IMG/VR virus record: IMGVR_UViG_3300045988_183585
Coordinates: 1 to 64,000 of that record
Length of the DNA: 64,000 nt
Strand: one strand, 5' to 3'
Source of the DNA: a virus
Shown here: piece after piece, positions 20,861 to 62,600 of the stretch
Layout: the number at the start of each line of letters is the position of its first letter
How positions within the stretch are numbered: the stretch's first letter is position 1
Notes under the pieces: model-generated
What the model was told of the DNA's origin: nothing
The model's input: the letters and a program-made list of their open reading frames with translations, nothing else
Database searches by the model: none
Position numbers and translations under genes: made by a program

Positions 20861-22225
20861 TTAGAATTTGAGTTGCTCTTCAGTTATTTTTGCGATTTGC
20901 GGCAACTTGCGAGCTTCTTCGGTACGGAGCTGGAACATATCCAACTCATAATTACCGAGCCGGACGCGGTCAAGCCCATCAGCGTCTTTGAAAATATCAA
21001 AGAGTGTTTTGACGCGCAGCGCATCCTGCCTATCCCTCCAGTGTTCCGAGATGAAGTCGTAGCCTTCCTTATCGGGGCGGCAGTGATACTCCATCAGAAA
21101 CAGTGTGATGGGGTCTGTATCAGGATATGCTTCCTGCAGCATCCTTGCGCTCTCGCCACCGTGTGTATTATCCTCGGAATCGCTACGTCTGCCTGTGTCG
21201 TGATACAGTGCAGCCTCAATCAGAATTTCCTTGTCTTCCAAGTCCAGACCCTTCATATATGCCAACAGCATACACATGAACAGGACACGGCCAGCATGAG
21301 CCTTTCCGTGTAGTTTGCTTGCCATTTGGAAAGGAACGGCATCATAGTCGGCAGTCCTCTGATAGAGCCAGAAGTCATCTATCGCGCCGTCATCCACGGC
21401 CTCATTGAGCCAGTCGATACCATAGAGGGGAAAGTCTTCAACCTCCTTGATGTCATCAGGAGATACGATAATTTCAGCCTCCACGCCTTCGAAATACTCA
21501 ATGACAGAGGCTTTTTCGACTGTAGCCCGAAATACCTTCGCATTGTCAGACGGGAAGCGTGTGGCGAAGAACACGGCCACGGCAGGGTCCAGCGTCCAAG
21601 AGAATGCCTCCTCCAGACTTGCGCTTTCATCGCCGGCGCCACGGTAGACCGTCAGGGTGTCGGGATACTTCTTGAGTCCCTCCTCCGTTGCCTGAATCTG
21701 TTCCGGTGTTTTCATGCTCTTGAGCTTCAGTATGCCGTCCCGTCCAAGTGCGGAGCATCCGTAATCGGAAAAAGGGTAGACATCATAGAACAGTTTGTAA
21801 GCGCCATCAAAGCCCTCATCAACGAGCTTCTTCAGATACTCTATCCGCATCCGGTCGTTGAGTGCCGTGATGATGAAGCTACAGTTGCCTGAAGCAATTT
21901 TCTCCTTCAGTTGCTCAACAGCCCCTCGGATTTCAGGTGTTTTATCCTCGCCGTCGGCTGCCATTGTGAGACTGTGGCAGGGGAATATGACCTTATCCTT
22001 ATCCCAGTAATAGAACGGGGTGAAGCCGCAGCCATAGTAGAGGTTCTTAATGATGTCGTCGGTCAGATGAAACTTCTTCCGCAGTTCATCGGCTGTATAG
22101 AGCGCCATATAGCCGTTCCGACTGGCAATCGCCTTTGCTTTCTCTGATGTGACAGACGCAGCAGGGAGGAGGTTGCTGAACGATTCGACATTGCGGGATT
22201 TCATCACCACATCAGCGATGTTCAA
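20861..22225 (-). CDS. HD-domain phosphohydrolase with large unknown N-terminal domain
   Basis: C-terminal H..HD..H..D motifs (HGKAHAGR, ALYHDTGRR, DADGLDRVRLG). Start set at the second TTG, 9 nt after AGGAGG. Confidence 0.65.
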   Translation of the reverse strand: MNIADVVMKSRNVESFSNLLPAASVTSEKAKAIASRNGYMALYTADELRKKFHLTDDIIKNLYYGCGFTPFYYWDKDKVIFPCHSLTMAADGEDKTPEIRGAVEQLKEKIASGNCSFIITALNDRMRIEYLKKLVDEGFDGAYKLFYDVYPFSDYGCSALGRDGILKLKSMKTPEQIQATEEGLKKYPDTLTVYRGAGDESASLEEAFSWTLDPAVAVFFATRFPSDNAKVFRATVEKASVIEYFEGVEAEIIVSPDDIKEVEDFPLYGIDWLNEAVDDGAIDDFWLYQRTADYDAVPFQMASKLHGKAHAGRVLFMCMLLAYMKGLDLEDKEILIEAALYHDTGRRSDSEDNTHGGESARMLQEAYPDTDPITLFLMEYHCRPDKEGYDFISEHWRDRQDALRVKTLFDIFKDADGLDRVRLGNYELDMFQLRTEEARKLPQIAKITEEQLKF

Positions 22226-22421
22226 ACTTTTCAACCTCCTTCAACAATTTCTCTATCACTTCGGCAGCATCAGCTTCAAGGCTGTTAATGTTGCAGGCCC
22301 CGTCCACATCTCGGTATTTGCATCGCTTATCGCCGCAACCGAAGTTGTCTTCAGCGTCCGTGCCGTAGCAGCGGAGTCTTTTGACAACTCTCAGCGCGTC
22401 GCTTTTTAGCTTTGCCGTCAT
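22212..22421 (-). CDS. small 4-Cys protein
   Basis: CYGTDAEDNFGCGDKRCKYRDVDGAC. Overlaps the HD gene start. Confidence 0.35.
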   Translation of the reverse strand: MTAKLKSDALRVVKRLRCYGTDAEDNFGCGDKRCKYRDVDGACNINSLEADAAEVIEKLLKEVEKFEHR

Positions 22422-22445
22422 CGCGTTTTCTCCTTTCTTTTTTGG

Positions 22446-23492
22446 TCAAGCTCGAATGTATCGTGCCTTTTTGGACATTCCGATACGTTTAATGCTTCCT
22501 TCCTTCACCATGTGTCCCAGCACAGCTTCCACAGTGGACGGGCTGACATCAGGATGAATGGCACATATCTCTGCTTTGGAAATTGGCATCAGGCTGCCAA
22601 GTACCGTAGCTTCGATTCGCGTCATCTTCGTGATTTTCTTCCCATTGACGACTGCAAACCGCTTATCCAACTCCTTATAGCACTGATACAGTATGGACAA
22701 GAAGTTTTGAATAAATGGCGCATAGTCGTTGTTGTTCTCCATCCAGCCCTTCGAGGATTGCTCCAGTGCGTCGTAATAATACGCCTTGTGCTGGTTGATT
22801 TGTTCCTCGAAAGAAATGTACTTTCCTACATCGAAGCCGTTTTTGTAGAGCAGCAGAAGTGAGAGCAACCTCGACATTCTGCCGTTGCCGTCACGGAATG
22901 GATGGATACAAAGGAAGTCCAAAATAACGCAGGGAATAAGAAGAAGCTGGTTGATATTAGAGTTGGAACAGGCATCCAAATAGGCCAGTTCCAGTTGCTC
23001 CATAGTAGCCGGTGTCTCTGCCGCAGGTGTGGGACGAAACCTCACACGCCGCGTGCCATCCGCCGCGACTTCCAGAATCACATTGTCATCCGTTTTGTAC
23101 TGCCCACCGTTCTCGTCGCCTGCGACTGCCATCATGGTTTCATGGAGCCGCAGAATGTCAGGAACGCCGAAAGACAGGTACTCATATCCTGAATGCACAG
23201 CGTTGAGTGCATCTCTGTATCCGGCAATTTCCGCCTCATCATGGTTCAGAGGCGCACTGCTGTGGTTTACGATTTCCGCAATGCGCTTGTCGCTGGTCAC
23301 AATGCCCTCAATGGCGTTGGAGCTCTTTACTGACTGAACTCGCGCAATGGATTCCAGTTCAGTGAAGACTTTTCCAAACTCCTGCTTACGGAAGCCGGCT
23401 TCAGTACGAAGAGAGTAGATTTTGCTCGTGATGTTCACAAGGCTTGCAGGAAGCAGCCCGTTATCGAGGAAAGAATAATCAAACTTTCTCAT
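22446..23492 (-). CDS. Fic/DOC family protein
   Basis: HPFRDGNGRMSRLL is the canonical Fic motif. Start moved to MRKFDYSF, with an AAAGGAG RBS. Confidence 0.85.
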   Translation of the reverse strand: MRKFDYSFLDNGLLPASLVNITSKIYSLRTEAGFRKQEFGKVFTELESIARVQSVKSSNAIEGIVTSDKRIAEIVNHSSAPLNHDEAEIAGYRDALNAVHSGYEYLSFGVPDILRLHETMMAVAGDENGGQYKTDDNVILEVAADGTRRVRFRPTPAAETPATMEQLELAYLDACSNSNINQLLLIPCVILDFLCIHPFRDGNGRMSRLLSLLLLYKNGFDVGKYISFEEQINQHKAYYYDALEQSSKGWMENNNDYAPFIQNFLSILYQCYKELDKRFAVVNGKKITKMTRIEATVLGSLMPISKAEICAIHPDVSPSTVEAVLGHMVKEGSIKRIGMSKKARYIRA

Positions 23493-23567
23493 AACACCAG
23501 CTCCTTTCTGCACATTATTATACATCATTATATGCAGAAAATCAACTCCTTCCTGCAGCAAATGGGC

Positions 23568-23804
23568 TTAAAGAACAACATCAGCAAGAACTTCCTTGGA
23601 AACCGTGTTGTTCCACATCCGCACACTTTTCCTGATACTGCTGGCATAGATTTTTGTGCCGGCATAGGTCTTCAGGTTTGCGTGGAACGGAAACCCCTTT
23701 TTGCAACTCTGACATACAGCCTTACAATCGGGCTTGCCACAGTGGGAATACAGCTTGATTTTGCCACCACACACAGGGCAGGGAGCAATGTAACCTAAAT
23801 CCAT
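23568..23804 (-). CDS. small zinc-ribbon protein
   Basis: CPVCGG..HCGKPDC..CQSC. Start at MDLGY, with a GGAGA RBS. Confidence 0.5.
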   Translation of the reverse strand: MDLGYIAPCPVCGGKIKLYSHCGKPDCKAVCQSCKKGFPFHANLKTYAGTKIYASSIRKSVRMWNNTVSKEVLADVVL

Positions 23805-23822
23805 AGTATTATCTCCTTTCAA

Positions 23823-23850
23823 GAAGAGCCACCCCGAAGGGTGGCTCTTT
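23823..23850 (-). terminator. intrinsic terminator
   Basis: agagccaccc cgaa gggtggctct. Confidence 0.55.
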
Positions 23851-23858
23851 AGTTGTAG

Positions 23859-26087
23859 TTAGACCTTCAGCCGTTTCTTGACGATTTTGACCATTGCCTT
23901 GGGGAAGGTGGACAGGTCAGTAATGTCAAGGAACTGGTCGCCGTAAATCTTCTTGAGGTACGCTTTGTCGTCGCCGATAGCTGCTGCAACAATCTCAACA
24001 CCGCGCCGGCGATTGCGGGCTACGATGTCTTTGATGTCCTTCGCCGCAGAATCTCCACCATAGGAATCATCATTCGGCTTGCCGTCCGAGATGATAATGA
24101 GGAGCTTCGTGCGCTCAGGTCTCGCATTCAGCAGGTTCGCAACGACCTCCAGAGCTGCACCGTCACGGTTACAACCTCCGGTGGAGAGCTTGGCAAGGCG
24201 ATACTTGTCACGCTTACCAGCCTTCAGGAAGTCCGTATAGACGAACAGGTTGACCCTACCATGCATGGTCACGTTGTGGCCGTACACAGCGACAGGAACA
24301 TGAACACGCTCTGCATAGTCATGCAGGAGCATGGTGGCCTTCATAGCGGCGCCCATGCGCTGTCCGCACATGGAGCCGGACTGGTCAACGAGAACAGCCA
24401 CGGCCATGTCAGGCAGGTCCTGCGGCAGCTTGGTGTCGCTGAAGTACCGGCAGTCGGGACGCCACATATCATTGGCTACGATATCTCTACCGTACATCCG
24501 ATTTCTGCGGACATCGCCATCTTGCAGGTCTTTCAGTTCCTGCTGCATCAGCTTCGCCAAACGCTTGGAATACTGTTTCACATCCTCCATCATTTCTCCG
24601 TAGAGCTTGATGTTTGCGGGTGTTACTTCAACCTCGCGTTTGACGTCGATTTTATGACCCTTGTGCGTGGAGCTGCGGTCCATGATGTCAACATCAGCGA
24701 TGATTTGGGACTTCAAATCCTGTTCCATCTGAGCTTCGGCCATGTCACCGGCAACGGAGGAAATGATGGTCTGCAGAACATTTGCCAACATATTGTCAGC
24801 CTGCTCCTGCTTCTCATTCTTATCCTTTCCATCGCCGTTCTTACCAGCCACAGCAGCGGGAACGTTGCCCTTATTGGCATCATTACCGCCGGAACCGCTG
24901 CCGCCCTTTTTGCCCTTTTTCTTACCAGCAGACTGAGCATCCTTGGTAGCTTGCTTGGCTACGTTGGAAGCCTTCTGGTTCTTGGGCATCTGAGAGCCGC
25001 CGCCATTCTGTGCGGCCTGAGCGATTTGCTGGAGCACCTGCTGAATGGCATTTGCGCTGGGCTGGGAGACACCTCCGCCGCCCTGCTGGTTCTGGCTGTT
25101 TTGACCGCCGCCGGAGTTGCCGCCGGAAGAGGACTGGCCCTGCTGCCCCCCCTGACCGTTCTGGTCGGAGCCGGACTGCTGACCTTGCCCCTGCTGGCCT
25201 TGGCCTGCCTGAGCATTCTGCTGCTTGTCACACTTATCTATTGCATCCTTGATGTAAGGCCACATAAAGAGAAGCATCACATTGATTTGAGCATACAGCT
25301 CTTTAGGGTTATCCGTGTTGGTGGCAAGCTCAATGGCCTGTGAGATGTCTGTCAGCTTCTTGGCGTACTCATTGGTATAGAGCGTCTGCTCATCCGCAAC
25401 GAGAATTTCACCGAAGCGTGCGAACTGGAGAACGAGGCTTGTCATGATAGACAGCGGCTCATTCTTGTTATTCGTATAGCCTTCCAGCGTGTGAAGCTGT
25501 CCCTGAAGGGAAGATGCTGCCATCTCAATACCACGTGCAACAATGCCGCCGTAGTAGTCGCTCATACGCTCCTCGTCGTGTGCGTCGATGATGCAGTTGA
25601 CGAGTTCGTCCCGCAGCGACTTGAACACCTTGCGGTATTCAGGATGCTTCAGCGCCTCCTTCATCTCATCCAGTTCTGTCTCGTCGTCCGGTTCAGGCAT
25701 CCGTCCGTAGAGTGTGCCGTTCTCTTCCAATTCCTTGTCTGCCAACGCATCGGCGCGGAAGTCGTGGAATCGGATGTGGGCCAACTCATGATAGACGATA
25801 CCCATAACCGTTGCGAATCGTGAGGAGGGGAGCTTATACCACGTGATGACACTATTCGCCGTATTCTGATAAAGATTATTCCCATCAGTACAGGCGGTGA
25901 TGTCTGAGTTTGGGTTATGCATCAGAGAAACGGAGATGTGCTTGTCAAGGTCCTTCGTCATCGAATCGACTGTCGCCTGCACATGACTCCGAAACGCTTC
26001 ACTGGTGTAGATGTCAGCATCCGTGAGCTTCTCGCTCATTTCATTGGCACCCACACGGATTTGCCTCCAGATAGATTTCTGGTCCAT
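23859..26087 (-). CDS. vWA-domain protein with N-terminal HExxH putative metallopeptidase region (DUF2201-like) and Q/G-rich linker
   Basis: YHELAHIRFH (HExxH motif). Low-complexity QGQQGQGQQSGSDQNGQGGQQ linker. C-terminal VLVDQSGSM is the vWA MIDAS motif. Confidence 0.75.
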   Translation of the reverse strand: MDQKSIWRQIRVGANEMSEKLTDADIYTSEAFRSHVQATVDSMTKDLDKHISVSLMHNPNSDITACTDGNNLYQNTANSVITWYKLPSSRFATVMGIVYHELAHIRFHDFRADALADKELEENGTLYGRMPEPDDETELDEMKEALKHPEYRKVFKSLRDELVNCIIDAHDEERMSDYYGGIVARGIEMAASSLQGQLHTLEGYTNNKNEPLSIMTSLVLQFARFGEILVADEQTLYTNEYAKKLTDISQAIELATNTDNPKELYAQINVMLLFMWPYIKDAIDKCDKQQNAQAGQGQQGQGQQSGSDQNGQGGQQGQSSSGGNSGGGQNSQNQQGGGGVSQPSANAIQQVLQQIAQAAQNGGGSQMPKNQKASNVAKQATKDAQSAGKKKGKKGGSGSGGNDANKGNVPAAVAGKNGDGKDKNEKQEQADNMLANVLQTIISSVAGDMAEAQMEQDLKSQIIADVDIMDRSSTHKGHKIDVKREVEVTPANIKLYGEMMEDVKQYSKRLAKLMQQELKDLQDGDVRRNRMYGRDIVANDMWRPDCRYFSDTKLPQDLPDMAVAVLVDQSGSMCGQRMGAAMKATMLLHDYAERVHVPVAVYGHNVTMHGRVNLFVYTDFLKAGKRDKYRLAKLSTGGCNRDGAALEVVANLLNARPERTKLLIIISDGKPNDDSYGGDSAAKDIKDIVARNRRRGVEIVAAAIGDDKAYLKKIYGDQFLDITDLSTFPKAMVKIVKKRLKV

Positions 26088-26109
26088 GCGTCATTTCTCC
26101 TTTCTAAAT

Positions 26110-26532
26110 TCACTTGTGCCGGTTCTTGAAAATCTCAACGGTAAACTCAAGGCAGAAATCTGCCACCTGCAAACGGTCTTTAGGATTGCCAGTGAACACG
26201 GGGTCAATACCGTTGGCGACAGCCATTCGGTTGAGAATGCCGCATCCAGCCATAGCTGCCTCGTGTGCCGACCGGCGTCCCGCGTCGATAGTCTGCAGCG
26301 TGTCGATGAGGTCTTCGCCTTCGAGACGATTATGGGCGATGATGATGCGAGTTTCGCTCATATCAACGGTCGTCACATAGTCGAGGAAAGCACCGGCGCA
26401 GCGCCGTTCGATGTTGTCGAGCATCTTATCAGCGTACTGGACGCCGTTTTTGATGCACTCACCGACCTTAGCGCAAAGCGCCTTATAGCTCTCGTGATTA
26501 AAGAACTTGGCGTTCTCATAGTTGTGAGTCAT
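26110..26532 (-). CDS. hypothetical protein
   Basis: Start moved to MTHNYENAK, with an AAAGGAGAAAACATC RBS. The longer track ORF overlaps the upstream gene. Confidence 0.5.
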   Translation of the reverse strand: MTHNYENAKFFNHESYKALCAKVGECIKNGVQYADKMLDNIERRCAGAFLDYVTTVDMSETRIIIAHNRLEGEDLIDTLQTIDAGRRSAHEAAMAGCGILNRMAVANGIDPVFTGNPKDRLQVADFCLEFTVEIFKNRHK

Positions 26533-26611
26533 GATGTTTTCTCCTTTCTTGCTTTCGGTCCTGAAAGCAAGAAAAGAGGCTCCATGCCTCTCTTCTCCTT
26601 TCAGGACAAGC

Positions 26612-28489
26612 CTATGCCACCTTGCTGATGACCTGCGCCGCATTGGAACGAATCTCGTTCTGCTCGACGGGGTCATTCGTGCATTTGGCGATGAGGCACG
26701 TGTCAATGTAATCTTCCAAATGAGCCATGTATCTGTCGTCACACTGCACGCAGCAGACGAGAGACTCCAGCTCGCAAATAGTGCAGGAACCTTCCGTGAT
26801 TTCCTTGTCGGCGCAGTAGCTCCGAATCTGCTCAAACACGTCGTACAGAGCGTTCAGCGTCTTGTCGTCACGGCTCCAGCCGGTGTTGTACTTGATGCGC
26901 TCCAGCATAGCCTGCTTTTCGATTTCAGTGCTGTCGAAAATCATCCGGCAACGCCGAATAACAGACTGGTCGATGGGGCGGCAGGAAGCATAGCCGACGT
27001 TATCCGTGAATACCACAACGGCATCCTTCTGACGATACGTGAAACCGCCGTCCACCAGCGGAATCATAGCACCCGGCAGGTCGTACTGGTTCAGTGCGAC
27101 CATAACGCCGGAGTCCTTGATACGGCTGATTTCCTGAATCTCGCAGATGTAACCGCGAGAAACGGCTTTCACGAAAGCGGACTCGACCACCTTCACAGGG
27201 GAAGTGCAGCCGGCGCGGGCAACCAACAGCTCAGAATACTTTGCGAAGCATTCCTCAGATGTGATGCCCGTGCCATCCTCGCCCGTCATGGTCGTCCACG
27301 CGGATTCGGGGTCGAAGGAAATCTCATCGAACGTGGGAAGTTCTCCACGCGCCGCATCCACGGGATTGCAGGGGACGAACTCAGAAATCAGGTCCTTCGC
27401 CAGCATATCGGTATGGCAGGTCAGCTCCAGCCGAGGAGTGTGCAGGATGCACGCCAGAACCTTCGTGCCGGTAGACTTACCGTAACCGGTAATGCCGCGC
27501 CACAGGAAGTTGCGGAAGGGTACGCGCATATTGGACGTAGCGACGATTTTGTCGGCCATCTCGATAACCTCAGGCTGAACCTTGAAGTCATCATCGAAGG
27601 TGGGAATCAGCAGTTCCTCGTCGGGCGTCCACGGGTGTGCGTCAGCCCACGCTGCGTATCTGAGCTTGGCAGCCTTCACGGTCATGCCCTTGGTAGAGCT
27701 TGAGGTGCTGTTGGCGGCCATTGTGCCACCGATGATGGTAGGTGTGCCGACAATGATGGTGCCGTTGAAAGCGCCGTTGTTGACCTTCTGCCGCGTCAAC
27801 GTATCCATGTTCCCGTTCTGGACGTTCAGCGGGACTTTGCCCGTCTCACAGCCATAGTAGAACATATCACTGAAGATATACAGATAGTTGAAGGCGGTAG
27901 ATGCTTCCACCATGTGAGCGCCCCAATCAGCGGGGTACTTGGCGCACAGGGCGAGAATCTCGTCACGGACGGTCTTGAGTTCCGAGTTGTCATCCACGAC
28001 AGCCAACTCCGGTGCCTCGTAGTAGAGGGACAGGACTTGGGGTGTCATTGCCAGCATAGCGCCGCTGAGGTCGATGTCGTCAGACTCAGAACCGATAGAC
28101 GGAGTACCCGCCCACTGGCCGGAAGGCATCGTCACGGCGGCACCCAGTTTACCGACAGAAGGCGCATTGGTCTGGAACACCGTTTTATAGGTGAACAGCA
28201 ACGTCTTCACGGTCGTGCCGGTAGAGTTGTCGCGGAACTCAGCGCTCCACAGATTGTCAGAGACCTGCAGCAGAGCATAGTCCTCAACAAAGCCGGGGAT
28301 ACCCAGATATGCCAGAAATGCTCTGGTTGCATAGGCGTGCAGCGTAGATTGCCCCTTCATAGACGGTCTCTGCGGCGCATTCCACTTGGAGAACGTCGTC
28401 GTGCTGCGGTTAGGCATTTGGTTCAGCCCGAAGGGGAGGGTACTGATGTCGAACCCTTTCTTACTTCTGAAGAGTACACAATTTGCCAT
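26612..28489 (-). CDS. MoxR-like AAA+ ATPase with ~330-aa uncharacterised N-terminal domain
   Basis: Walker A GITGYGKST. MoxR-type Walker B / sensor region YICEIQEISRIKDSGVMVALNQYD. The start is the ATG after the conserved cassette RBS. Confidence 0.75.
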   Translation of the reverse strand: MANCVLFRSKKGFDISTLPFGLNQMPNRSTTTFSKWNAPQRPSMKGQSTLHAYATRAFLAYLGIPGFVEDYALLQVSDNLWSAEFRDNSTGTTVKTLLFTYKTVFQTNAPSVGKLGAAVTMPSGQWAGTPSIGSESDDIDLSGAMLAMTPQVLSLYYEAPELAVVDDNSELKTVRDEILALCAKYPADWGAHMVEASTAFNYLYIFSDMFYYGCETGKVPLNVQNGNMDTLTRQKVNNGAFNGTIIVGTPTIIGGTMAANSTSSSTKGMTVKAAKLRYAAWADAHPWTPDEELLIPTFDDDFKVQPEVIEMADKIVATSNMRVPFRNFLWRGITGYGKSTGTKVLACILHTPRLELTCHTDMLAKDLISEFVPCNPVDAARGELPTFDEISFDPESAWTTMTGEDGTGITSEECFAKYSELLVARAGCTSPVKVVESAFVKAVSRGYICEIQEISRIKDSGVMVALNQYDLPGAMIPLVDGGFTYRQKDAVVVFTDNVGYASCRPIDQSVIRRCRMIFDSTEIEKQAMLERIKYNTGWSRDDKTLNALYDVFEQIRSYCADKEITEGSCTICELESLVCCVQCDDRYMAHLEDYIDTCLIAKCTNDPVEQNEIRSNAAQVISKVA

Positions 28490-28694: not shown

Positions 28695-28706
28695 CGCTTT
28701 TGCTGT

Positions 28707-28737
28707 AAAAAAAAGAAGCTCCCGAAGGAGCTTCTTT
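28707..28737 (-). terminator. intrinsic terminator ending unit B
   Basis: agaagctcc cgaa ggagcttct flanked by T/A runs. Confidence 0.6.
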
Positions 28738-53548: not shown

Positions 53549-53565
53549 AGCTTTTCTCCTTTCTT

Positions 53566-56082: not shown

Positions 56083-56099
56083 TGAATTTAAGGCGAAAA

Positions 56100-56128
56100 A
56101 AAGAAGCTCCCGAAGGAGCTTCTTTCAA
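56100..56128 (-). terminator. intrinsic terminator ending unit H
   Basis: agaagctcc cgaa ggagcttct. Confidence 0.6.
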
Positions 56129-56139
56129 AATTGTTGTAA

Positions 56140-56643
56140 TTATTCGGTTTTCACAGCCGGCGTGGTGACACCATCGAAGATATTGCCGATGACACGGTAT
56201 TTAGTGCCGAGCAGCTTGCAGAACGGTACGAAATGGCCGTTATCATAGGCTTCATCCATCAGCTCTGCCGCTGTCTTCGTCTTCAGAGACTCATTCACCA
56301 GCAGGCCAAAGGAACCGTTGCGGAACACGACTGTGTGCTCGTTAAAACGAGCCGTGGGGTGGAAGCCCTCAAAAGTCTCCACAATGTCTCCCTCGAATAC
56401 CTTGGTTCCATCCTTGTCGTCGATACCGGTATACTGCGTAACGGTATCCGCGTAGACACCGCAAACGTCGCGGCTTTCAGCCGTGTCGGACAAGTACGTG
56501 TAGATGATGGCGAAGTCCTTCGGGCTATTATGGGGACGTGCGGCGCCCCCGTAAACCCAAATTCCCGGCAAGGGTGCTCCGGTTGCCATGCGAACTTTCT
56601 CACCATGCCGCCGAATCTGGCCGCGAAACAGAATTTCTTTCAT
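56140..56643 (-). CDS. YopX-like protein
   Basis: MKEILFRGQ.. opening and a GNIFDG region, typical of the phage-associated YopX family. Start has a GAAAGGAGAAAAAACA RBS. Confidence 0.5.
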   Translation of the reverse strand: MKEILFRGQIRRHGEKVRMATGAPLPGIWVYGGAARPHNSPKDFAIIYTYLSDTAESRDVCGVYADTVTQYTGIDDKDGTKVFEGDIVETFEGFHPTARFNEHTVVFRNGSFGLLVNESLKTKTAAELMDEAYDNGHFVPFCKLLGTKYRVIGNIFDGVTTPAVKTE

Positions 56644-56664
56644 TGTTTTTTCTCCTTTCATTTT

Positions 56665-56967
56665 TCAATACATCCCATGGAGCTTTTTCCACTTGGCTTT
56701 ATCCATCCAAGGACCGTCGAAGCTGTCGTCCACACATTCAGTACGGAGACAGTTGGGGCAAACGAGACAGTCCACAGCCCGCCGAATACGACCGGTCTTG
56801 AAACGCACCCCATGCTGGATGATTTCTTCCTCCTCCACGAAGTAGCTCGGTTCAAGCTCGCAGCCACAGGTGCCGCAGATGCCGAATGGGTTCGTATCGC
56901 CCTTGTAGGTGCCGTTCTGCTTCTGGATGTTTTCCTGAATCACCACACGATAATCTGTCGCAGCCAT
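56665..56967 (-). CDS. Cys-rich small protein
   Basis: CGTCGC..CLVCPNC. Confidence 0.45.
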   Translation of the reverse strand: MAATDYRVVIQENIQKQNGTYKGDTNPFGICGTCGCELEPSYFVEEEEIIQHGVRFKTGRIRRAVDCLVCPNCLRTECVDDSFDGPWMDKAKWKKLHGMY

Positions 56968-57701
56968 CAAGATTGCACCTCCTCAAATTCAATGACCCAT
57001 ACCCACGGGTTCCCGTCCCACTTGGACAGGACCTTGTGTTCGGGAATCGTGCTGTCCCACAGCTTGATAAACTTCTCCTGAAGGGACGTGGTGTTCTCGC
57101 CGGAGGTACTGTCACAGGTGATGCCCTCCTTAGTGAAGTCCTCGTCCTTCATGTCATTCAAATGTTCCAACCGCACATCCGTCACACGCAGGAAAATGCG
57201 TGCCGCCTCTTTGGGCATATGAATGGACGGTGTCCAGCGAATGAGGGAACTCACCTCAGGGGAGTTTTTCAAATCCTCATCCGAATAATCGGCCTTGTAG
57301 AGCCAGCGGTTGAAATCGCAGGCACAAGTCGTCTCACGGACATACAGGATATCGCCCTTATCAAACGGGGCGCGAAAGCTGCGGATGACAGCATCCGTAT
57401 CAGCAAAGGCTGCCACGAGACGCCCATCACCGTCACGGTACAGACCTTCCGCTCGTTTGCCGGCGAAGTGAAACGCACCACGGCGTGTTACCGTCTTGCG
57501 CCCCTCGCGGATGGCACGTACCATCTCGCCGTTGAACAGGATAGGCTTCGGCTTCTTGTCCTTGAAGATGTCGGGGTCATAGTGGACACCGGCTTTCTCG
57601 CGCAGCTCCTTACAGCGGGAACCTCTGTAGATGCTGGTATCGCACTCTCTGACAGGGCAATTCGTGAAGCAGGCGCTTCTGTCCTCGGTAGGCTTTGTCA
57701 T
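56967..57701 (-). CDS. ASCH/PUA-like domain protein
   Basis: KPILFNGEMVRAIREGRKTVTRR resembles the ASCH-domain N-terminus common in phage-borne proteins. Start at MTKPTED, with an AAAGGAG RBS. Confidence 0.45.
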   Translation of the reverse strand: MTKPTEDRSACFTNCPVRECDTSIYRGSRCKELREKAGVHYDPDIFKDKKPKPILFNGEMVRAIREGRKTVTRRGAFHFAGKRAEGLYRDGDGRLVAAFADTDAVIRSFRAPFDKGDILYVRETTCACDFNRWLYKADYSDEDLKNSPEVSSLIRWTPSIHMPKEAARIFLRVTDVRLEHLNDMKDEDFTKEGITCDSTSGENTTSLQEKFIKLWDSTIPEHKVLSKWDGNPWVWVIEFEEVQS

Positions 57702-57721
57702 GTTTTTTCTCCTTTCTTCTT

Positions 57722-58273
57722 TCAACTGCTCCAGCGCATCCATTCAGGTACAGGTCCGTAGCCGCGCTGCGCTTGCGGGGCAGCAGGGTAGGGGTACGGT
57801 CTCGCTCCTGCTACATGAGCCACAGCAACCGTTCCGCAGCCGCCGGACGGTGTCCTGTACTGCCGAATCGCCGGCGCGTACAGGAACCCGTCTACAGCTT
57901 GCCTTACGGTCATAGCCGAAAACTTCGGCGCTCTCCAGCGATGCTCCTTCGAGTAATAGATTTCACGCACTCTGCACGTTGCGACCGTGACAGGGACACG
58001 TGGGTCATCTACTGTGTGCTCACAGACAATAGCAATAGATGTCTTGCCAACTCTGGCCGCATCTTCAACCATTCTCTGCAATGCAAGGCGCTGGCCGTAG
58101 GGCATAGCAGCATCACGGTGCTTTACTTCGAAAAACACATATCCCTTATCATGATATTCGATTAGTCCGTCGATATCGGTAGGGTAGAGGTTGTGCTTGT
58201 TTTCGATGGTCATGCCCGTGAAGCTGATGAGCTGTTTCATCCTCGTGGGAAATTTAATGTAGTCCTTCCTCAC
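57722..58273 (-). CDS. hypothetical protein with PD-(D/E)xK-like motif
   Basis: DIDGLIEYHDKGYVFFEVK. GTG start 7 nt after AGGAGG. Confidence 0.4.
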   Translation of the reverse strand: MRKDYIKFPTRMKQLISFTGMTIENKHNLYPTDIDGLIEYHDKGYVFFEVKHRDAAMPYGQRLALQRMVEDAARVGKTSIAIVCEHTVDDPRVPVTVATCRVREIYYSKEHRWRAPKFSAMTVRQAVDGFLYAPAIRQYRTPSGGCGTVAVAHVAGARPYPYPAAPQAQRGYGPVPEWMRWSS

Positions 58274-58305
58274 GGGTGTTTCCTCCTTTCTTTGAGGCAT
58301 CCCCC

Positions 58306-58638
58306 TTAGCGGGGGATGCCCTTGCCGTTTTTCAGCATCGAAATGACCTTCGCAGCAACGGCATCGTCGGCTACAAACTGGTTATAGCCGTTCTTCAGAC
58401 TGTTGCTGGAAAAGTCCTTTGTGTCCTTGGCGTAGCGGCACATAGACTGGCTGGAAATCGGGCCGTAGATGGAGTGCTCGGTGTTTACGTAGACACAGCT
58501 ATCGCCGCAGGTCACGAAACCGGAGCATCCGCGCCGCTGCCCATTGACAGCGATATTCTTCAGTTCGACCTTGATTTCCATACCGTGCTGCTCCGCCAGT
58601 GTGGTGAGGCTGTTTTTCAGCTTAGTTGCAAACAACAT
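58306..58638 (-). CDS. hypothetical protein
   Basis: 110-aa ORF. Confidence 0.5.
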   Translation of the reverse strand: MLFATKLKNSLTTLAEQHGMEIKVELKNIAVNGQRRGCSGFVTCGDSCVYVNTEHSIYGPISSQSMCRYAKDTKDFSSNSLKNGYNQFVADDAVAAKVISMLKNGKGIPR

Positions 58639-58641
58639 AGC

Positions 58642-59271
58642 TCACACCGCCTTTCGTTCCACCCAGACATCGCCCCGCTTTGCACACTCGTAGTGGTAGG
58701 GGCAGTCGTAGTGGGAATCGCAGCCTTCATCAACGAAGGTCTGGCAGGTGGCGCAGTCCAGATTGTGATGCAGCAGCCGCCGGATAACATCCCGTGCATT
58801 AACGGTTTCGACCGCAAGGTAGGAAAAGGCTCTCGCCTTGACGCTTGCGTCGTGCTCGTCCGTATAGTAGAGAGAAGACGCACAGAGAACCTTTGCTCCG
58901 AACACATGGCGGCACTCCTCATTGGAGAGCATCTCGCCGACGAACGGGAAAAGCCCGCGTCTGGCTCTGAGCTGATTGCTGACGAAAGCGTGTGTGTTCT
59001 TCGCCAGCTCCACGCCCTCATGAGCCTCCTCCAGTGTGTCGAAGGACAACGCACACACATCCACCAAAGAGCTTTCGCCGACAGGGGAGTGGTTCACATA
59101 GAGCATCACGTACTTCTTGCTGGGCAGAGTCGCAGTTCTTGCTGCATCCTCGCCCTTGAGACACACATAACGCGCCACGTTGTCGTTCCAAACGAACTGC
59201 TTACAGGAAGCACAGGTATTCTCCGGCTTGTCACATCCGGATTTTGTCTCAACGACCTTGATGTTTGCCAT
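58642..59271 (-). CDS. Cys-rich hypothetical protein, first gene of unit H
   Basis: Start at MANIKVV after the cassette RBS. Confidence 0.55.
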   Translation of the reverse strand: MANIKVVETKSGCDKPENTCASCKQFVWNDNVARYVCLKGEDAARTATLPSKKYVMLYVNHSPVGESSLVDVCALSFDTLEEAHEGVELAKNTHAFVSNQLRARRGLFPFVGEMLSNEECRHVFGAKVLCASSLYYTDEHDASVKARAFSYLAVETVNARDVIRRLLHHNLDCATCQTFVDEGCDSHYDCPYHYECAKRGDVWVERKAV

Positions 59272-59472
59272 AGTTTTCTCCTTTCTCCCAGCCTTTTGTA
59301 AGGACTTACGGGAACACAAAAATGTATGAAAATATATAAAAAAAGACAGCCACCCCAAGATTGGGATAACTGTCTGAATTTATGTGGTGACTTGGAAAAC
59401 GGAGATAATCTCCTTTATAAAAATAGCTTCGTAATTATAATTCTATACTACCACAGTTTGATATTTTGTCAA
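59272..59472 (-). promoter_or_regulatory. reiterated promoter-leader cassette, copy H
   Basis: -35 tgtcaa at ~59467-59472 (plus coordinates). -10 atacta at ~59445-59450. Palindrome at 59401-59413. Hairpin at 59345-59376 with an A-run at 59338-59344 (a U-run in the RNA). Confidence 0.6.
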
Positions 59473-59498
59473 CTATATACACAAACTAAAAAAAAGAA

Positions 59499-59524
59499 AA
59501 AGAGCCGCCGAAGCGACTCTTTTT
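59499..59524 (-). terminator. intrinsic terminator ending unit I
   Basis: agagccgc cgaa gcgactct plus a T-run. Confidence 0.55.
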
Positions 59525-59536
59525 CCGTTGCAAAGT

Positions 59537-60502
59537 TTAGTTTTCGATGAATATGGGCGTCATATCCTGCACGCAGGTGTAGCGGCCACGAAGAGCGTCG
59601 ATTTTTGCCTGAGCATCCTCGAAGGTAGCAAACTTCTGTGCGGAAGAGACAAAAGAGGTTATGTGCATCCTGCTGCGGCTGATTTTCTCCAAATACTTGC
59701 CGGAAAAACCGCCTTTGGCGAACATCACCGCATAGGGTTTCGGTGCCATCAGCTTGTCTGTGGCGGGTTTGACTTCCAGATTGAACCTCTGAAACAGGTC
59801 TCCGAGCTGTTCGGACGCATCTTCGGCGCTGGTAAACAACAGTGCATCGCACGCTTCCTTCACATAGTGGACCGTTCTTGAACCTCCGAACTTCTCGAAC
59901 CCGCTTACGTAGCCATAGCTACGATGCTTCAGCACGACAGGCCCATCCACAGCCTTTGTATTCTTCGGGGCGGGGCGCAGGCGTTCGCCGCGCCGCGTTC
60001 CGCTGAACGACATGAAGATGTAGTGGTCCTCGTGGTCTTTCAGCATCTCACGCGCCTCATCCAGCCAGACCTCCAGCTCGTCCGTCGTTCTGACGTACTT
60101 CCACAGAAGGTGCTCACCGGAGGTGTAGGGCATCAGCGTTACGTTCAGGTCATTGACGCCGGGGTTGCCTGCGAGGATGTCCTCCAAAGAGGCGGCGTCC
60201 TTCACCGCACGAGCGAACCACTTCCGTGTCTGAGCCCCGTTGAGCCACTTGCTGCCGTACACCATGCACTCGGTATCGTTCTCAGCGAAGGTGTCATTTA
60301 TCTTCGCCATGAACTCTTCTTCCGGCAGCTCCAGAGCGTTACGGCCCATCATAATGAACCAGTGACGCTCACGCACTTCACGGCGTTTGGAGTTTTTATC
60401 GTAGATAACCTCGGTGCAGTTGTTGCTGCCGCCCAGTGCCAAAGGAATGATGCCGCGAGTCGTCTTGATGAACGTGCGAGAATCAATGATAGTGTATCCC
60501 AT
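59537..60502 (-). CDS. hypothetical protein
   Basis: 321-aa ORF. Confidence 0.55.
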   Translation of the reverse strand: MGYTIIDSRTFIKTTRGIIPLALGGSNNCTEVIYDKNSKRREVRERHWFIMMGRNALELPEEEFMAKINDTFAENDTECMVYGSKWLNGAQTRKWFARAVKDAASLEDILAGNPGVNDLNVTLMPYTSGEHLLWKYVRTTDELEVWLDEAREMLKDHEDHYIFMSFSGTRRGERLRPAPKNTKAVDGPVVLKHRSYGYVSGFEKFGGSRTVHYVKEACDALLFTSAEDASEQLGDLFQRFNLEVKPATDKLMAPKPYAVMFAKGGFSGKYLEKISRSRMHITSFVSSAQKFATFEDAQAKIDALRGRYTCVQDMTPIFIEN

Positions 60503-60533
60503 GATTTTTCTCCTTTCTTTGCATGAAGCAGCC

Positions 60534-60803
60534 TCACATCACACCATCGTCAACGACATCAATAAAACCGTATTTCAGGCTGTCGTTAATGCCGTGAACG
60601 CTGTGCCCGTTATCGAAATCCTTGCGGAGCTGAGAAGCAGAGGTCTTGGCATCGCCTTCGCCATACTCGAACATCTCAGTCTCGACGCAATTCGACACGA
60701 TTTTCTTCAGCTTTGTGTGAGAGGTCGTTGCAGCGACCAAGCGCATGGAGTCTCTTGACTTCCATGCATCGCAGGAAAACACGATGTAAATTGGCTTATT
60801 CAC
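60534..60803 (-). CDS. hypothetical protein
   Basis: 89-aa ORF. Confidence 0.5.
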   Translation of the reverse strand: MNKPIYIVFSCDAWKSRDSMRLVAATTSHTKLKKIVSNCVETEMFEYGEGDAKTSASQLRKDFDNGHSVHGINDSLKYGFIDVVDDGVM

Positions 60804-61383
60804 AGTCCTTGCTCCTTTCTTTCCGGCCTTTACGGTCGATTTCAGCCACAGGATAGGGCGATGCCTTTCTCATGTTGCTGTCCATGATTCTCATTACATG
60901 AATGAGCATCTCGGAATAAGCACGATGCATCGTCTCGTAGCGGGCACGCCATGTATTATCATCATTGTCGTTGACGCGGGAACTCAACCCCATGCTGTAA
61001 TACAGCGCAGAGTCGATATCCACCATCTCCGCATCTGTCAGGTGGCAGATGTATGCTCCCAGCTCGTTCGTGGAGACTGCCATCGGCTGCTCACACAACG
61101 CCGTGCTGGGGCGGCTGGTGCTGGTGATGAGTACATGAGATGGAAGCTGCATCTTCGGGGAAGACGTGGTAAACACGACCTCCACGACGCTGCTGTACCG
61201 GTTCAGGTCGTCAGCGGATACGACGATAGCGGGACGATGGCCTCTGATAACAGAGCTGTTAGAGGGCTGGCCGTCCTTGTCTCTGAACTGACTTCCTCCC
61301 GGTGCCCAAGGAGAATAAATCTCAATCTCTTTGGCATTGACCCAGAACACATCACCCCTGCGGATGATGCCTTTTCTACCCAT
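60796..61383 (-). CDS. MazF/PemK-like toxin domain protein with ~70-aa C-terminal extension
   Basis: RRGDVFWVN..GSQ..RPAIVVSADDLN..VVEVVFTTS fits the PemK/MazF core. Confidence 0.5.
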   Translation of the reverse strand: MGRKGIIRRGDVFWVNAKEIEIYSPWAPGGSQFRDKDGQPSNSSVIRGHRPAIVVSADDLNRYSSVVEVVFTTSSPKMQLPSHVLITSTSRPSTALCEQPMAVSTNELGAYICHLTDAEMVDIDSALYYSMGLSSRVNDNDDNTWRARYETMHRAYSEMLIHVMRIMDSNMRKASPYPVAEIDRKGRKERSKDCE

Positions 61384-61591
61384 AGATATGGACCTCCTTT
61401 CCGTCAGAATTGGTCACGCACAGGGGAACGCCGAAAAAAGACAGAACCGACTCAATCGGCTCTGTCTCCATGCAGCCAAGGTGACAACGCTTATTTTCGT
61501 AGGTCGCCTCGACATATTTCTCGTTCACCATGATGGGTTCGTGGCAAATGCAGCATTCGCCGGCGTAACGAATTTTCTTTTTTACTTTCAC
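61376..61591 (-). CDS. small zinc-finger protein (possible cognate antitoxin)
   Basis: CCICHEPI..CHLGC. Overlaps the toxin start by 8 nt. Confidence 0.4.
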   Translation of the reverse strand: MKVKKKIRYAGECCICHEPIMVNEKYVEATYENKRCHLGCMETEPIESVLSFFGVPLCVTNSDGKEVHIYG

Positions 61592-61612
61592 AATGAATTT
61601 ACTCCTTTCTTT

Positions 61613-61816
61613 TCAATGTTGCCGAGACAGTGTTACGGCTGCTTGCTGGCGTCGTCTTTCACAGATTTTTCGCTGCTCTTCGATAGCTTCGTGAGCCTTC
61701 GCAATACACTGCTTCGCACGCCTATCCTGTTCAGAAGAGAAAGAGGCATAGCGCTCGGAGTAGACGGAATCCATACGCTCGGCTCTCTCGATTAACTCAT
61801 ACAGCGGTGTAGACAT
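61613..61816 (-). CDS. small hypothetical protein
   Basis: 67-aa ORF. Confidence 0.4.
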   Translation of the reverse strand: MSTPLYELIERAERMDSVYSERYASFSSEQDRRAKQCIAKAHEAIEEQRKICERRRQQAAVTLSRQH

Positions 61817-61832
61817 AGCTTCTCCTCCTCGT

Positions 61833-62105
61833 TTATTGAATGTTCATGCCTACAGCGCGAGGCCCTTCTTTGGACCAAGTTTCCTTGAGCCAGTGATAGG
61901 TGATTGTGCTATCTTCAGGACTCTTGTCTGGATAACAGGGAAGGTATGCTGCGGAGTACAAATCTCTGCATTGACTGAAATACACATGATTCCAGTCAGC
62001 CCACACATCGCCAAGAGAACTGATAGCTCGCTTGAACGACCGAAAGCTCTGCGGCGTGTGAACTACGATGGCATTTGCTCCGTTCCACTTTCCATTCCAC
62101 ATCAT
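61833..62105 (-). CDS. hypothetical protein
   Basis: 90-aa ORF. Confidence 0.45.
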   Translation of the reverse strand: MMWNGKWNGANAIVVHTPQSFRSFKRAISSLGDVWADWNHVYFSQCRDLYSAAYLPCYPDKSPEDSTITYHWLKETWSKEGPRAVGMNIQ

Positions 62106-62368
62106 TGCGCTTCACCTCCGCGATACGAAGGTCTCCGCTTGGACCTGAACGGCGGCATTATCGGTGCGTTGTAGCTGGTCAGCTCACCAGTCAACTTCAC
62201 GGGCACACAGGCGAGCAGACCTCGCTGCTGTCTGTACTGATGCGCCAGATTGTTGCGGGCCTGACGCTCCGATACGGCCATGGTCGTACCACCCCACTTA
62301 TTCGTGGAGATGTCGTCATATACACGGATAGGGCCGAGGTAGCGATAAACCTTTTTTGGCTGTGCCAT
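62102..62368 (-). CDS. hypothetical basic protein, first gene of unit I
   Basis: Start at MAQPKKV after the cassette RBS. Confidence 0.45.
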   Translation of the reverse strand: MAQPKKVYRYLGPIRVYDDISTNKWGGTTMAVSERQARNNLAHQYRQQRGLLACVPVKLTGELTSYNAPIMPPFRSKRRPSYRGGEAQ

Positions 62369-62549
62369 AGTTCATTTCTCCTTTCTTTTTCTTGTAAAAT
62401 GTATGAAAATATATAAAAAAAGACAGCCATCCCGAAAATGGGATAACTGTCTTGATTACGTATGGTGACTTGGAAACGGAGATAATCTCCTTTATAAAAA
62501 TAGCTTCGTAATTATACTTCTATACTACCACAGTTTGATATTTTGTCAA
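62369..62549 (-). promoter_or_regulatory. reiterated promoter-leader cassette, copy I (short form like copy B)
   Basis: Hairpin agacagttatcccattttcgggatggctgtct, with compensatory changes. Confidence 0.6.
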
Positions 62550-62567
62550 TTCTTTTTGGGCTTAAAA

Positions 62568-62600
62568 TATGAGGACGGATACTATTTGCATCCGTCCTCG
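62568..62600 (-). terminator. intrinsic terminator after the low-GC gene
   Basis: gaggacggat actatttgc atccgtcctc. Confidence 0.55.

Follow-up and report, generated by a model that had tools for sequence, protein, structure and literature searches.

Introduction

Regulatory sequences repeated in front of clustered operons are known from Gram-positive conjugative plasmids, where EGeRS1 and EGeRS2 stand before four to five clustered variable operons (PMC8708921, PMC6294495). EGeRS2, from p576 in clade II of the pLS20 family, combines a strong sigma-A promoter with operators for Reg, a repressor whose gene lies inside one of the operons, and such a regulon is transiently expressed once transferred to a recipient (Val-Calvo et al. 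2018, PMC6294495; 2021, PMC8708921), and EGeRS1 of pLS20 blocks upstream read-through in an orientation-dependent manner (PMC8708921). Other repeated intergenic elements are the mobile PeSL (promoter-early stem-loop) cassettes of T4-type phages, which are Gram-negative lytic myoviruses (Arbiol et al. 2010, PMC2839356; Comeau et al. 2014, PMC4122927) and the Frpo/ssi elements of conjugative plasmids (PMC11541004); termination and antitermination also act on single long conjugation operons, as in conAn, defined by the ConAn1 protein (Pfam PF17362, pXO2-34) plus the large conAn2 RNA (PMC8191782). Here we analyze a cassette of promoter, terminator-bearing leader and ribosome-binding site (RBS) repeated in a 64,000-nucleotide stretch of DNA, positions 1 to 64,000 of IMG/VR virus record IMGVR_UViG_3300045988_183585 (the window, below).

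A preliminary description of the window held that no such organisation had been described, which overlooked EGeRS1/EGeRS2, PeSL and Frpo/ssi as close precedents. The cassette shares the logic of EGeRS and PeSL but matches neither in sequence nor in components; new relative to both are an obligatory intrinsic terminator inside the transcript, with no built-in antiterminator, and a different, much larger class of element. We think it probable, though well short of certain, that the cassettes are the regulatory heads of a co-regulated multi-operon accessory regulon, of the 'establishment' or anti-defence type, on a conjugative plasmid-like element of gut Clostridia.

Eight cassettes on one strand

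The minus strand of the window carries eight full copies of the cassette and one promoterless 3' fragment, within a few nucleotides of where the preliminary description had placed them. An exact 33-nt core occurs at positions 28643, 35951, 42032, 46648, 51290, 56032, 59422 and 62499 (none expected, from 100 shuffles); a repeat finder returned families of seven to eight copies over 28.5–62.6 kb, and an nhmmer profile agreed, with eight full copies and the fragment. The eight-copy alignment contains long stretches of invariant columns. Between the −35 box and the start codon, any two copies are 78–94% identical (median 85%), so that the earlier estimate of ~85–95% was about right, and identity reaches 87–100% over the first 95 nt, which contain the promoter and 5' leader.

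On the minus strand the parts follow in the same order: the preceding unit's terminator, promoter, leader with hairpin 1, leader terminator, spacer, usually hairpin 3 (six of the eight copies), Shine-Dalgarno (SD) sequence and start codon. Cassette spans below run from the −35 box to the base preceding the start codon.

20861..64000, minus strand: co-oriented arm of accessory operons, running beyond the window's right end and terminating at an HD-domain gene (from the open reading frame (ORF) list and SD-aware gene calls)
62369..62549, minus strand: cassette c62, without hairpin 3 (−35 62549-62544; −10 62527-62522; hairpin 1 62490-62478; leader terminator 62453-62415; RBS 62384-62377; ATG 62368)
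59272..59472, minus strand: cassette c59 (−35 59472-59467; −10 59450-59445; hairpin 1 59413-59401; terminator 59375-59338; hairpin 3 59312-59287; RBS 59284-59277; ATG 59271)
55883..56082, minus strand: cassette c55 (−35 56082-56077; −10 56060-56055; hairpin 1 56023-56011; terminator 55986-55948; hairpin 3 55923-55898; RBS 55895-55888; ATG 55882)
51143..51340, minus strand: cassette c51 (−35 51340-51335; −10 51318-51313; hairpin 1 51281-51269; terminator 51243-51207; hairpin 3 51183-51158; RBS 51155-51148; TTG 51142)
46498..46698, minus strand: cassette c46, chimeric (−35 46698-46693; −10 46676-46671; hairpin 1 46639-46627; terminator 46599-46563; hairpin 3 46538-46513; RBS 46510-46503; GTG 46497)
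41883..42082, minus strand: cassette c41 (−35 42082-42077; −10 42060-42055; hairpin 1 42023-42011; terminator 41983-41947; hairpin 3 41923-41898; RBS 41895-41888; ATG 41882)
35823..36001, minus strand: cassette c35, without hairpin 3 (−35 36001-35996; −10 35979-35974; hairpin 1 35942-35930; terminator 35904-35867; RBS 35836-35829; ATG 35822)
28490..28693, minus strand: cassette c28 (−35 28693-28688; −10 28671-28666; hairpin 1 28634-28622; terminator 28597-28557; hairpin 3 28533-28508; RBS 28505-28498; ATG 28489)
48789..48838, minus strand: promoterless hairpin 3 and RBS module, matching model positions 199-253 only (nhmmer), in front of a DUF4942 (methylase-associated) gene
62571..62599, minus strand: unit-end hairpin upstream of c62, with a weak T-tail
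59495..59526, minus strand: unit-end terminator upstream of c59
56096..56126, minus strand: unit-end terminator upstream of c55, GAAAGAAGCTCCTTCGGGAGCTTC plus a T-run (coordinates taken from fold output)
51356..51381, minus strand: unit-end terminator upstream of c51
46715..46742, minus strand: unit-end terminator upstream of c46; with an A-run before and a T-run after, it may be bidirectional
42096..42124, minus strand: unit-end terminator upstream of c41
36255..36282, minus strand: unit-end terminator of the unit preceding c35, ~250 nt away from the c35 promoter
28707..28738, minus strand: unit-end terminator upstream of c28
20827..20856, minus strand: listed site adjoining the left end of the arm (20861)

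Cassette c55 is a spacer variant (AAGTATCTGTTTGTGG) and heads four tandem paralogous genes; in c28, which heads an AAA+/DUF3232/VWA operon, the terminator stem has another sequence with its pairing kept. The terminator said to lie upstream of every copy is clear for six of them, while that of c62 has the weak T-tail and that of c35 is displaced.

Blastn searches of the cassette against annotated phage and plasmid collections, including 72,556 PLSDB plasmids, gave no match, and a search for the core with two patterns gave zero matches in 185,579 reference genomes. The core was found many times in IMG/VR contigs of 181–192 kb, always co-oriented and with at least 13 copies in one contig, and in at least 120 human-gut metagenome stretches spread over many samples; many short contigs end at the repeat. 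Against Rfam the cassettes matched no family even at E ≤ 1, a tRNA being the sole match in the window at the gathering threshold.

Cassette anatomy and RNA structure

A consensus scan independently called the promoter, TTGACA-16-TGgTAGTAT, which is near-consensus for sigma-A, has an extended −10 and matches 10 of the 12 hexamer positions; from this match it would be expected to be strong. AGAAT-TATAAT lies across the predicted start, within a 24-bp imperfect palindrome. The near-invariant, weakly structured leader of ~65 nt contains an SD-like AAAGGAGA-uua-UCUCC (hairpin 1, 5 bp) and CAAGUCACC. There follows the leader terminator, with a stem of 12–16 bp (−17 to −24 kcal/mol), T5–8 and ATATAT; leader hairpins ranked at or near the top of terminator lists, beside the unit-end terminators. 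Beyond it lie an A/U-rich spacer, a hairpin with a conserved C(A/G)UAAGU bulge (hairpin 3), AAAGGAGAAA and the start codon.

Among 48 distinct copies, the 12-bp helix of the leader terminator was 99.8% paired, with changes on both sides in 7 of 12 pairs. None of 500 shuffles reached its covariation score, and slid controls paired in only 46–59% of cells. Covariation thus marks the hairpin, earlier proposed to be an attenuator, as a genuine, selected structure of terminator type, and the G·U pairs in the helix place it on the sense strand. Two compensatory pairs occur within the inner helix of hairpin 3. Hairpin 1 is invariant in the lineage, except that GGAGA/UCUCC has become GGAGC/GCUCC, a compensatory change, in a diverged copy of a 134-kb metagenome relative (L102).

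No alternative antiterminator pairing is conserved across elements. The leader plus 5' arm folds weakly in most copies (−2 to −10 kcal/mol), with the 5' arm partly paired in a few; the exception, related locus L054, has a long leader hairpin of its own (−39.0). Because there is no conserved competing fold and most leaders are weakly folded before the 3' arm is made, termination would be the default. DNA folds of both strands formed only the three hairpins and left the −35/−10 region unpaired, so that neither single strand makes the promoter double-stranded, and the promoter is therefore not of the Frpo type.

One candidate alternative fold involves the SD sequence. The invariant segment UCUCCGUUUUCC is complementary to GGGAGAAAGGAGA in the six hairpin-3 cassettes (−13.9 to −15.1 kcal/mol, as against −9.65 for internal RBSs; p = 0.004, from copies that are homologous and not independent observations), and the minimum free energy (MFE) fold pairs the two. 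An anti-SD/SD switch is possible, but we give it little weight because the copies are non-independent, c35 and c62 have no extra complementarity (−8.3) and the motif is absent from distant relatives.

Several other readings of the cassette were discarded. A leader peptide is ruled out, as no start codon follows the SD-like AAAGGAGA; on inspection, geometry and length rule out hairpin 3 as a kink-turn or RNase III site; and a second promoter between terminator and RBS (TTGGGG-16-TATATT) is weak and not conserved in relatives. Plus-strand sites resembling antisense promoters lie inside the leader (46640-46667, 51262-51289 and equivalents): TTGAAA-16-TATAAT matches 11 of 12 positions in c51, and TTTATA-16-TATAAT uses the palindromic AATTATAATT. 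Their overlap with the sense RNA would be only ~20 nt, several unit-end terminators look bidirectional, and short antisense RNAs across the promoter are conceivable.

The tail after the leader terminator, TTTTT(T)ATATAT(A), is seen in all cassettes and is kept even among elements with otherwise unrelated cassettes; it could be a weak additional −10, a cleavage site for RNase or a tract that enhances termination. Examples are as follows.

46555-46568 of the window: tail after the leader terminator
L052:9712-9724 and L052:14198-14210: the same tail in a distant relative with two cassettes
L054:9962-9974: the same tail in a further relative
L066: the same tail

Genes headed by the cassettes

The preliminary description left open that the repeat was a generic miniature inverted-repeat transposable element (MITE), scattered without relation to gene starts. 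That was not the case: among 226 copies, no contig holds copies on opposite strands, and 186 of the 196 copies with enough downstream sequence (95%) are followed, 149–215 nt past the core, by an SD sequence and start codon; 181 copies keep the hairpin and T-run. Its claim that one promoter-leader-RBS cassette heads co-oriented units was borne out. Only 14 families account for the first genes, in agreement with ~13–14 units per element.

By Pfam and PHROG, the arm encodes three HTH_3 regulators, RRXRR/HNH, MazF-like, Fic, DUF4942 methylase-associated, AAA_5+VWA, YopX, DUF4314, DUF3232 and HD proteins; most of the genes are unknowns, and relatives add RecD2-like and RecG-like helicases. All three HTH_3 genes lie inside cassette-driven units:

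40213..40656, minus strand: HTH_3 regulator (Cro/CI-type) with a C-terminal zinc ribbon, in the c41 unit; candidate common repressor
43337..44400, minus strand: tandem HTH_3 regulator pair in the c46 unit (43948-44400 and 43337-43936)
46649..46672, no strand: 24-bp imperfect palindrome ATAGAATTATAATTACGAAGCTAT over the predicted start site; candidate operator, present with invariant columns in every copy

The c41-unit regulator matched 434 Cro (phmmer E = 2e-5), and its region is 94–97% identical in nucleotide sequence in relatives. The single-factor control proposed in the preliminary description is plausible in so far as three regulators are encoded in the units and a palindrome covers the predicted start; the identity of the factor is a matter of inference.

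The c55 unit (51401-55882) consists of four tandem paralogues of 362, 345, 339 and 394 aa with no Pfam match, and a fifth related gene at 48856-49899 (repeat families D6-D8) makes this a locally amplified family. The segment 43088-43948, which holds the second tandem HTH_3 paralogue (43337-43936), is missing from related loci that span the region and is, judging from those loci, a recent duplication or insertion in this variant. The RRXRR/HNH endonuclease gene (28836-30320) shows ~86% identity to its relatives, against ~95% for the flanking sequence, and it occurs in different units in different genomes; it is probably independently mobile. A link between this homing endonuclease and the cassette was ruled out, the gene being directly upstream of a cassette in only two of four contexts.

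The element carrying the cassettes

The window is 93–99% identical to other IMG/VR contigs in a mosaic pattern. In its left arm (window 12-4685) lies the gene of a surface adhesin whose true length is 1,876 aa and in which a thioester domain (TED) comes before the TQ-ester and SpaA domains. Ahead of it is another giant adhesin, a 2,321-aa protein containing 18 TQ-ester domains; in locus L056 the two lie at 151-7116 and 8906-14536. The left arm also encodes a type IA topoisomerase, YdjM, an HTH_23 protein, a non-specific endonuclease and an SPFH/flotillin protein. The topoisomerase-YdjM-HTH order and three more genes are syntenic with a 207-kb contig, which together with other relatives carries genes for ParA, sortase, integrase, ERF, a DUF3854 primase-like protein and TrbC pilin. 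More than 5,000 plasmids contain a homologue of the topoisomerase (35–41% identity), and 87% of these plasmids are predicted to be conjugative; only 49 phage records match, with identity of at most 31%.

The 134-kb relative L102 contains exact cassette cores and is 76–88% identical to units of the window; on the cassette strand it encodes a type IV secretion system (T4SS) coupling protein (E = 1.7e-41), a CHAP/lysozyme hydrolase and a large protein without a Pfam match. Neither the 64 kb nor ~1 Mb of related loci yielded any genes for virion proteins, terminase or phage replication. Because of the adhesin/topoisomerase backbone, the synteny, and the coupling protein and CHAP hydrolase of the relative, we read the element as a Gram-positive conjugative plasmid-like replicon of ~190 kb that IMG/VR has filed as viral. 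The preliminary description had spoken of an island in a host genome; the arm appears instead to be one long part of this replicon, which carries at least 13 cassette copies.

The few named protein homologues point to gut Clostridia as hosts (Oscillospiraceae, Lachnospiraceae, Eubacterium). Such misfiling has a precedent in the 'Hodor' conjugative megaplasmids of gut Bacillota, earlier taken for huge phages (PMC12934698), and the 'viral' contigs of ~180–192 kb 3300029310_000398, 3300045988_183936 and 3300030040_000294, among others, are most likely conjugative plasmid-like elements too. An identification with pMMCAT was wrong, that plasmid belonging to Bacteroidales. Window-to-contig coordinates suggest that the arm wraps round contig ends, consistent with a circular replicon.

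Recombination at the repeat

Clustering of the flanks showed one upstream unit joined to differing downstream units across genomes, with the junction inside the cassette: U10 is joined to D1 or D10, U11 to D6 or D7, U7 to D11 or D7, U4 to D1 or D7, and U2 to D4 or D10. Alignment breakpoints fall at cassette edges (28.79, 46.74, 48.84 and 51.15 kb). Cassette c46 is itself a chimera, resembling the copies of loci L020 and L009 up to hairpin 3 and that of L005 from the RBS on, with the crossover at the RBS end. In every related genome the DUF4942 gene has the hairpin 3 and RBS module before it, with differing genes further upstream and a breakpoint at 48836, and the c51-headed segment 48836-51148 had no match of 1 kb or more in the 50 related loci compared. 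Because the unit swaps of relatives have their junctions inside the cassette, the cassette is also a recombination substrate; the swapped units and the chimeric c46 fit the earlier suggestion of cassette-wise assembly.

Architecture in distant relatives

Distant elements were reached through homologues of the first gene of the c28 unit, and their upstream regions and other operon heads were inspected. The same architecture, in unrelated sequence, was present in L051, L052 (two copies), L054, L066 (three copies), L067 and L068, with the sequence homogenised within each element. These heads comprise a unit-end terminator, TTGAC(A/C/G/T), a spacer of 16–17 nt and a −10 usually of the extended TGg form (TGgTAnnAT); an A/U-rich leader of 46–77 nt with an AUAAAG(G/U)A-like motif; and then a strong hairpin, U5-8, AUAUA (all but one copy), an optional second hairpin and an SD sequence. 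The TATAAT at about −1 to +5, present in all copies of the lineage of the window, is absent in L052, L054, L066 and L067.

Transfer genes of L102 have promoters with the same hexamers and an AGAATT discriminator, but their leaders differ and contain no strong terminator:

L102:9095-9122 and L102:325-352, minus strand: transfer-gene promoters TTGACA-16-TAGTAT-AGAATT, heading a TrbC-like small ORF, a 720-aa protein with no Pfam match, the CHAP hydrolase and the coupling protein

The promoter module would thus be element-wide, and the leader-terminator module specific to accessory units. In L065 (5715-6005), a chromosomal-looking AAA+/VWA homologue is likewise preceded by a promoter and then a leader terminator before the first gene, so leader attenuation of this operon may predate its capture by mobile elements; the locus is not informative on mobile elements themselves.

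Comparison with described systems

The likeness to EGeRS2 is the broadest. In both, a conserved sequence with a sigma-A promoter, a predicted one in the cassette, is repeated before clustered, co-oriented, variable operons of a Gram-positive conjugative plasmid; the operons hold mostly unknown or anti-defence genes, with a regulator gene inside one, and their content is mosaic between related plasmids. The cassette differs in lacking sequence similarity (no PLSDB match), in having no TTATCCCnnTTATCCC dual-motif operators beside the −35 or +1, and in its regulators, which are HTH_3 proteins, no ribbon-helix-helix (RHH) Reg homologue having been detected. The p576 Reg heptamer TTATCCC occurs only inside the terminator stem and was judged a coincidental match, because that stem covaries. 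EGeRS2 has four copies, whereas the cassette has eight in the window and 13 or more per element, and the element is ~190 kb and from gut Clostridia rather than Bacillus. EGeRS2 also has no obligatory intrinsic terminator between promoter and first gene.

With EGeRS1 the cassette has in common a long, conserved, inverted-repeat-rich sequence directly upstream of the RBS of clustered operons (about five for EGeRS1), and its leader terminator would be expected to block upstream read-through in the same way. EGeRS1 is, however, 420–750 bp long, GC-rich and multi-branched, with no constitutive sigma-A promoter, whereas the cassette is ~200–250 bp, A/T-rich, and has a consensus promoter and one simple terminator. 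PeSL (Arbiol et al. 2010; Comeau et al. 2014) are likewise composite intergenic elements of sigma-70-type promoter, terminator stem-loop and SD sequence; they flank non-essential ORFan units that inter-copy recombination deletes, inserts or swaps, and chimeric copies mark the crossovers. For PeSL, recombination of two flanking copies also gives rise to mini-circles. Unlike the cassette, which sits in a conjugative plasmid-like replicon, they are ~100 bp long, more loosely conserved and found in hyperplastic regions of lytic myoviruses; neither T4-like nor any other virion genes, the setting of PeSL, were found here. The PeSL stem-loop, upstream of, within or just after the promoter, stops upstream transcription, and the cassette adds a strong terminator ~65 nt into the transcript.

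In its layout, with a strong constitutive promoter separated from the genes by a short leader and then an efficient intrinsic terminator, the cassette recalls lambda PR'-qut-tR' (Q) and N/nut, down to a −10-like hexamer in the initially transcribed region (in the present lineage) and a small leader hairpin. The lambda modules, however, are single-copy per phage against at least 13, no Q or N homologue was found among the arm proteins, and distant relatives do not keep the pause-like TATAAT. As in conAn and the zipper-type attenuator cATT of pLS20 and in canT of Tn916, a layer of termination or antitermination is set on Gram-positive conjugative operons, with terminators as insulators (PMC8191782, PMC11658703, PMC13401043). 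Those systems act once, at the head of a single long conjugation operon, through large structured RNAs (conAn2 of ~280 nt, a 456-nt leader) or an alternative antiterminator fold, whereas the cassette is repeated at each accessory operon and its leader is short, weakly structured and without a conserved alternative fold. Frpo/ssi elements are also homologous elements repeated before co-oriented anti-defence/establishment operons of conjugative plasmids (PMC11541004), but Frpo single-stranded DNA folds into a duplex −35/−10, which the cassette promoter does not do on either strand.

Proposed mechanism and alternatives

In the regulon that we favor, host RNA polymerase with sigma-A would start at every head, and all ~13–14 units would answer together to a binder of their shared sequence. 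The best candidate is a unit-encoded HTH_3 repressor acting at the palindrome over +1, in parallel to Reg/EGeRS2 on p576 and to Aca at acr promoters. The leader terminator would halt most transcripts by default, so that operon expression would equal the read-through fraction, either a constitutive leak from a very strong promoter or the result of factor-dependent antitermination, and it would also insulate each unit from its neighbours. The ~200–250 bp of homology at each unit boundary would let homologous recombination delete, insert or swap whole self-sufficient units between variants.

Several observations weigh against this proposal. A search of the window for the classic establishment genes ArdA/ArdC, SSB and PsiB gave none of them; the window and the related loci covered showed neither a relaxase nor an oriT, so that leading-region status is at most a possibility; and the contigs are classed as viral by IMG/VR and have phage-like genes, YopX and HNH-type ones in the arm itself and ERF in relatives. 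The promoter hexamers are not specific to accessory units, being shared by the transfer genes of L102, and variation of the promoter spacer in diverged copies weakens a spacer-operator model. Sequence and comparison show the repeat and its anatomy, selection on the terminator helix, the link to gene starts, the conjugative nature of the lineage, the shuffled junctions and the architecture kept by distant relatives; what is said of promoter activity and strength, termination efficiency, the regulator, timing and any establishment role is inferred in silico. Finally, it is wasteful to set a strong terminator between genes and their strong promoter without some means of relief, and ConAn1 (PF17362), Q, NusG-like or other antiterminator families are not among the Pfam matches of the 53 arm proteins; no Q or antiterminator Pfam family occurs among the left-arm proteins either, with ~125 kb, or about two-thirds of the element, lying outside this search.

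A dedicated antitermination switch would refine the regulon reading, and we hold it to be possible if rather unlikely. Here a trans-acting factor (N/Q/ConAn1/LoaP-like) or the leader RNA itself (put/canT/EAR-like) would modify RNA polymerase at the leader for read-through, turning the units on only in a given state, e.g., after transfer. It would suit default termination with no conserved cis antiterminator fold, the contrast between the leader's nearly invariant initial ~65 nt and a terminator stem that changes in a compensated manner, and the lambda-like layout, with a perfect TATAAT at about −1 to +5 resembling a sigma-dependent pause element. Processive RNA or protein antiterminators are moreover common in Gram-positive conjugative elements (PMC8191782, PMC11658703), and transfer-gene promoters of the same type without a terminator make the terminator a separate control layer. 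On the other hand, no antiterminator family was seen among the arm proteins, the single 5-bp leader hairpin is far simpler than put, EAR, canT or conAn2, and distant relatives with the same architecture do not keep the TATAAT at +1. Unlikely, in our view, is a broader proposal: that the leader and its obligatory terminator form an undescribed factor-dependent or transfer-triggered switch (working by attenuation, by antitermination or through small RNAs made from the leader) that gates a whole anti-defence/establishment regulon and recurs, in a sequence particular to each element, throughout a large and so far undescribed family of megaplasmid-like conjugative elements from gut Clostridia.

We find it improbable that the element is a jumbo phage whose cassettes are early, host-polymerase-dependent promoter/terminator modules of a hyperplastic early region, Gram-positive counterparts of PeSL. 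All exact core matches of the IMG/VR search are in viral contigs of up to 192 kb; YopX and HNH/RRXRR in the arm, ERF in relatives and a tRNA gene would fit a phage; and PeSL logic is similar (strong sigma-70 promoter, stem-loop, SD sequence, flanking ORFans, shuffling). Set against this are the absence of virion, terminase and phage replication genes noted above, the sortase-type giant adhesins, topoisomerase and YdjM, synteny with ParA/TrbC/integrase contigs, the coupling protein and CHAP hydrolase in a cassette-bearing relative, and the precedent of misfiled megaplasmids (PMC12934698). Just as improbable is that the cassette is a small-RNA gene making an abundant ~100-nt trans-acting RNA (by way of the anti-SD segment UCUCCGUUUUCC or of an SD mimic), the downstream genes being incidental read-through. 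A mostly weakly structured A/U-rich stretch of 46–77 nt that ends in a strong terminator and a long U-tail is a classic small-RNA layout, and the invariant segment does complement the RBSs of hairpin-3 cassettes and pair with them in the MFE fold; but that complementarity has the failings given above, and the precise placement of 95% of copies before an SD sequence and start codon argues for operon driving as the selected function.

We attach very little probability to the cassette being a selfish dispersed (MITE-like) element, part of an integron attC cassette system or a Frpo-type single-stranded promoter, despite its many copies and mosaic junctions and the repetition of leading-region Frpo before operons (PMC11541004). 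It has no terminal inverted repeats, keeps a single orientation and a strict gene-proximal position, and is absent from the 185,579 genomes, all unlike a MITE; no integron integrase is among the arm proteins and each repeat has its own promoter; and neither strand folds −35/−10 into a duplex.

On the regulon reading, an element common in human-gut metagenomes yet absent from reference genomes, and filed as a virus, would carry ~14 cassette-headed units that define a ready-made regulon of mostly unknown genes: a natural hunting ground for anti-defence and establishment functions in Clostridia, much as EGeRS marked out the establishment regulons on plasmids of Bacillus. That the architecture is kept across elements whose proteins are only ~38% identical suggests a general, unstudied attenuation layer on Gram-positive conjugative elements, and its key question is how the leader terminator is passed. 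The cassette also shows concretely, in a setting other than T4 phages, how regulatory repeats can link gene modules that are shuffled, and could serve as a compact, portable promoter/insulator part for gut Firmicutes genetics.

Other features of the window

Upstream of c35, between the unit-end terminator (36282-36255) and the promoter, lies an iteron-like array (36051-36163, minus strand) of four exact copies of TCCCGACTAAA in a strict 34-bp period. The window has no other such array, and a role as centromere, iteron, oriT-accessory or operator array is conceivable. The two convergent arms are separated by a tRNA-Ser(TGA) gene (19398-19486), followed by three small plus-strand ORFs (19867-20564) and convergent terminators.

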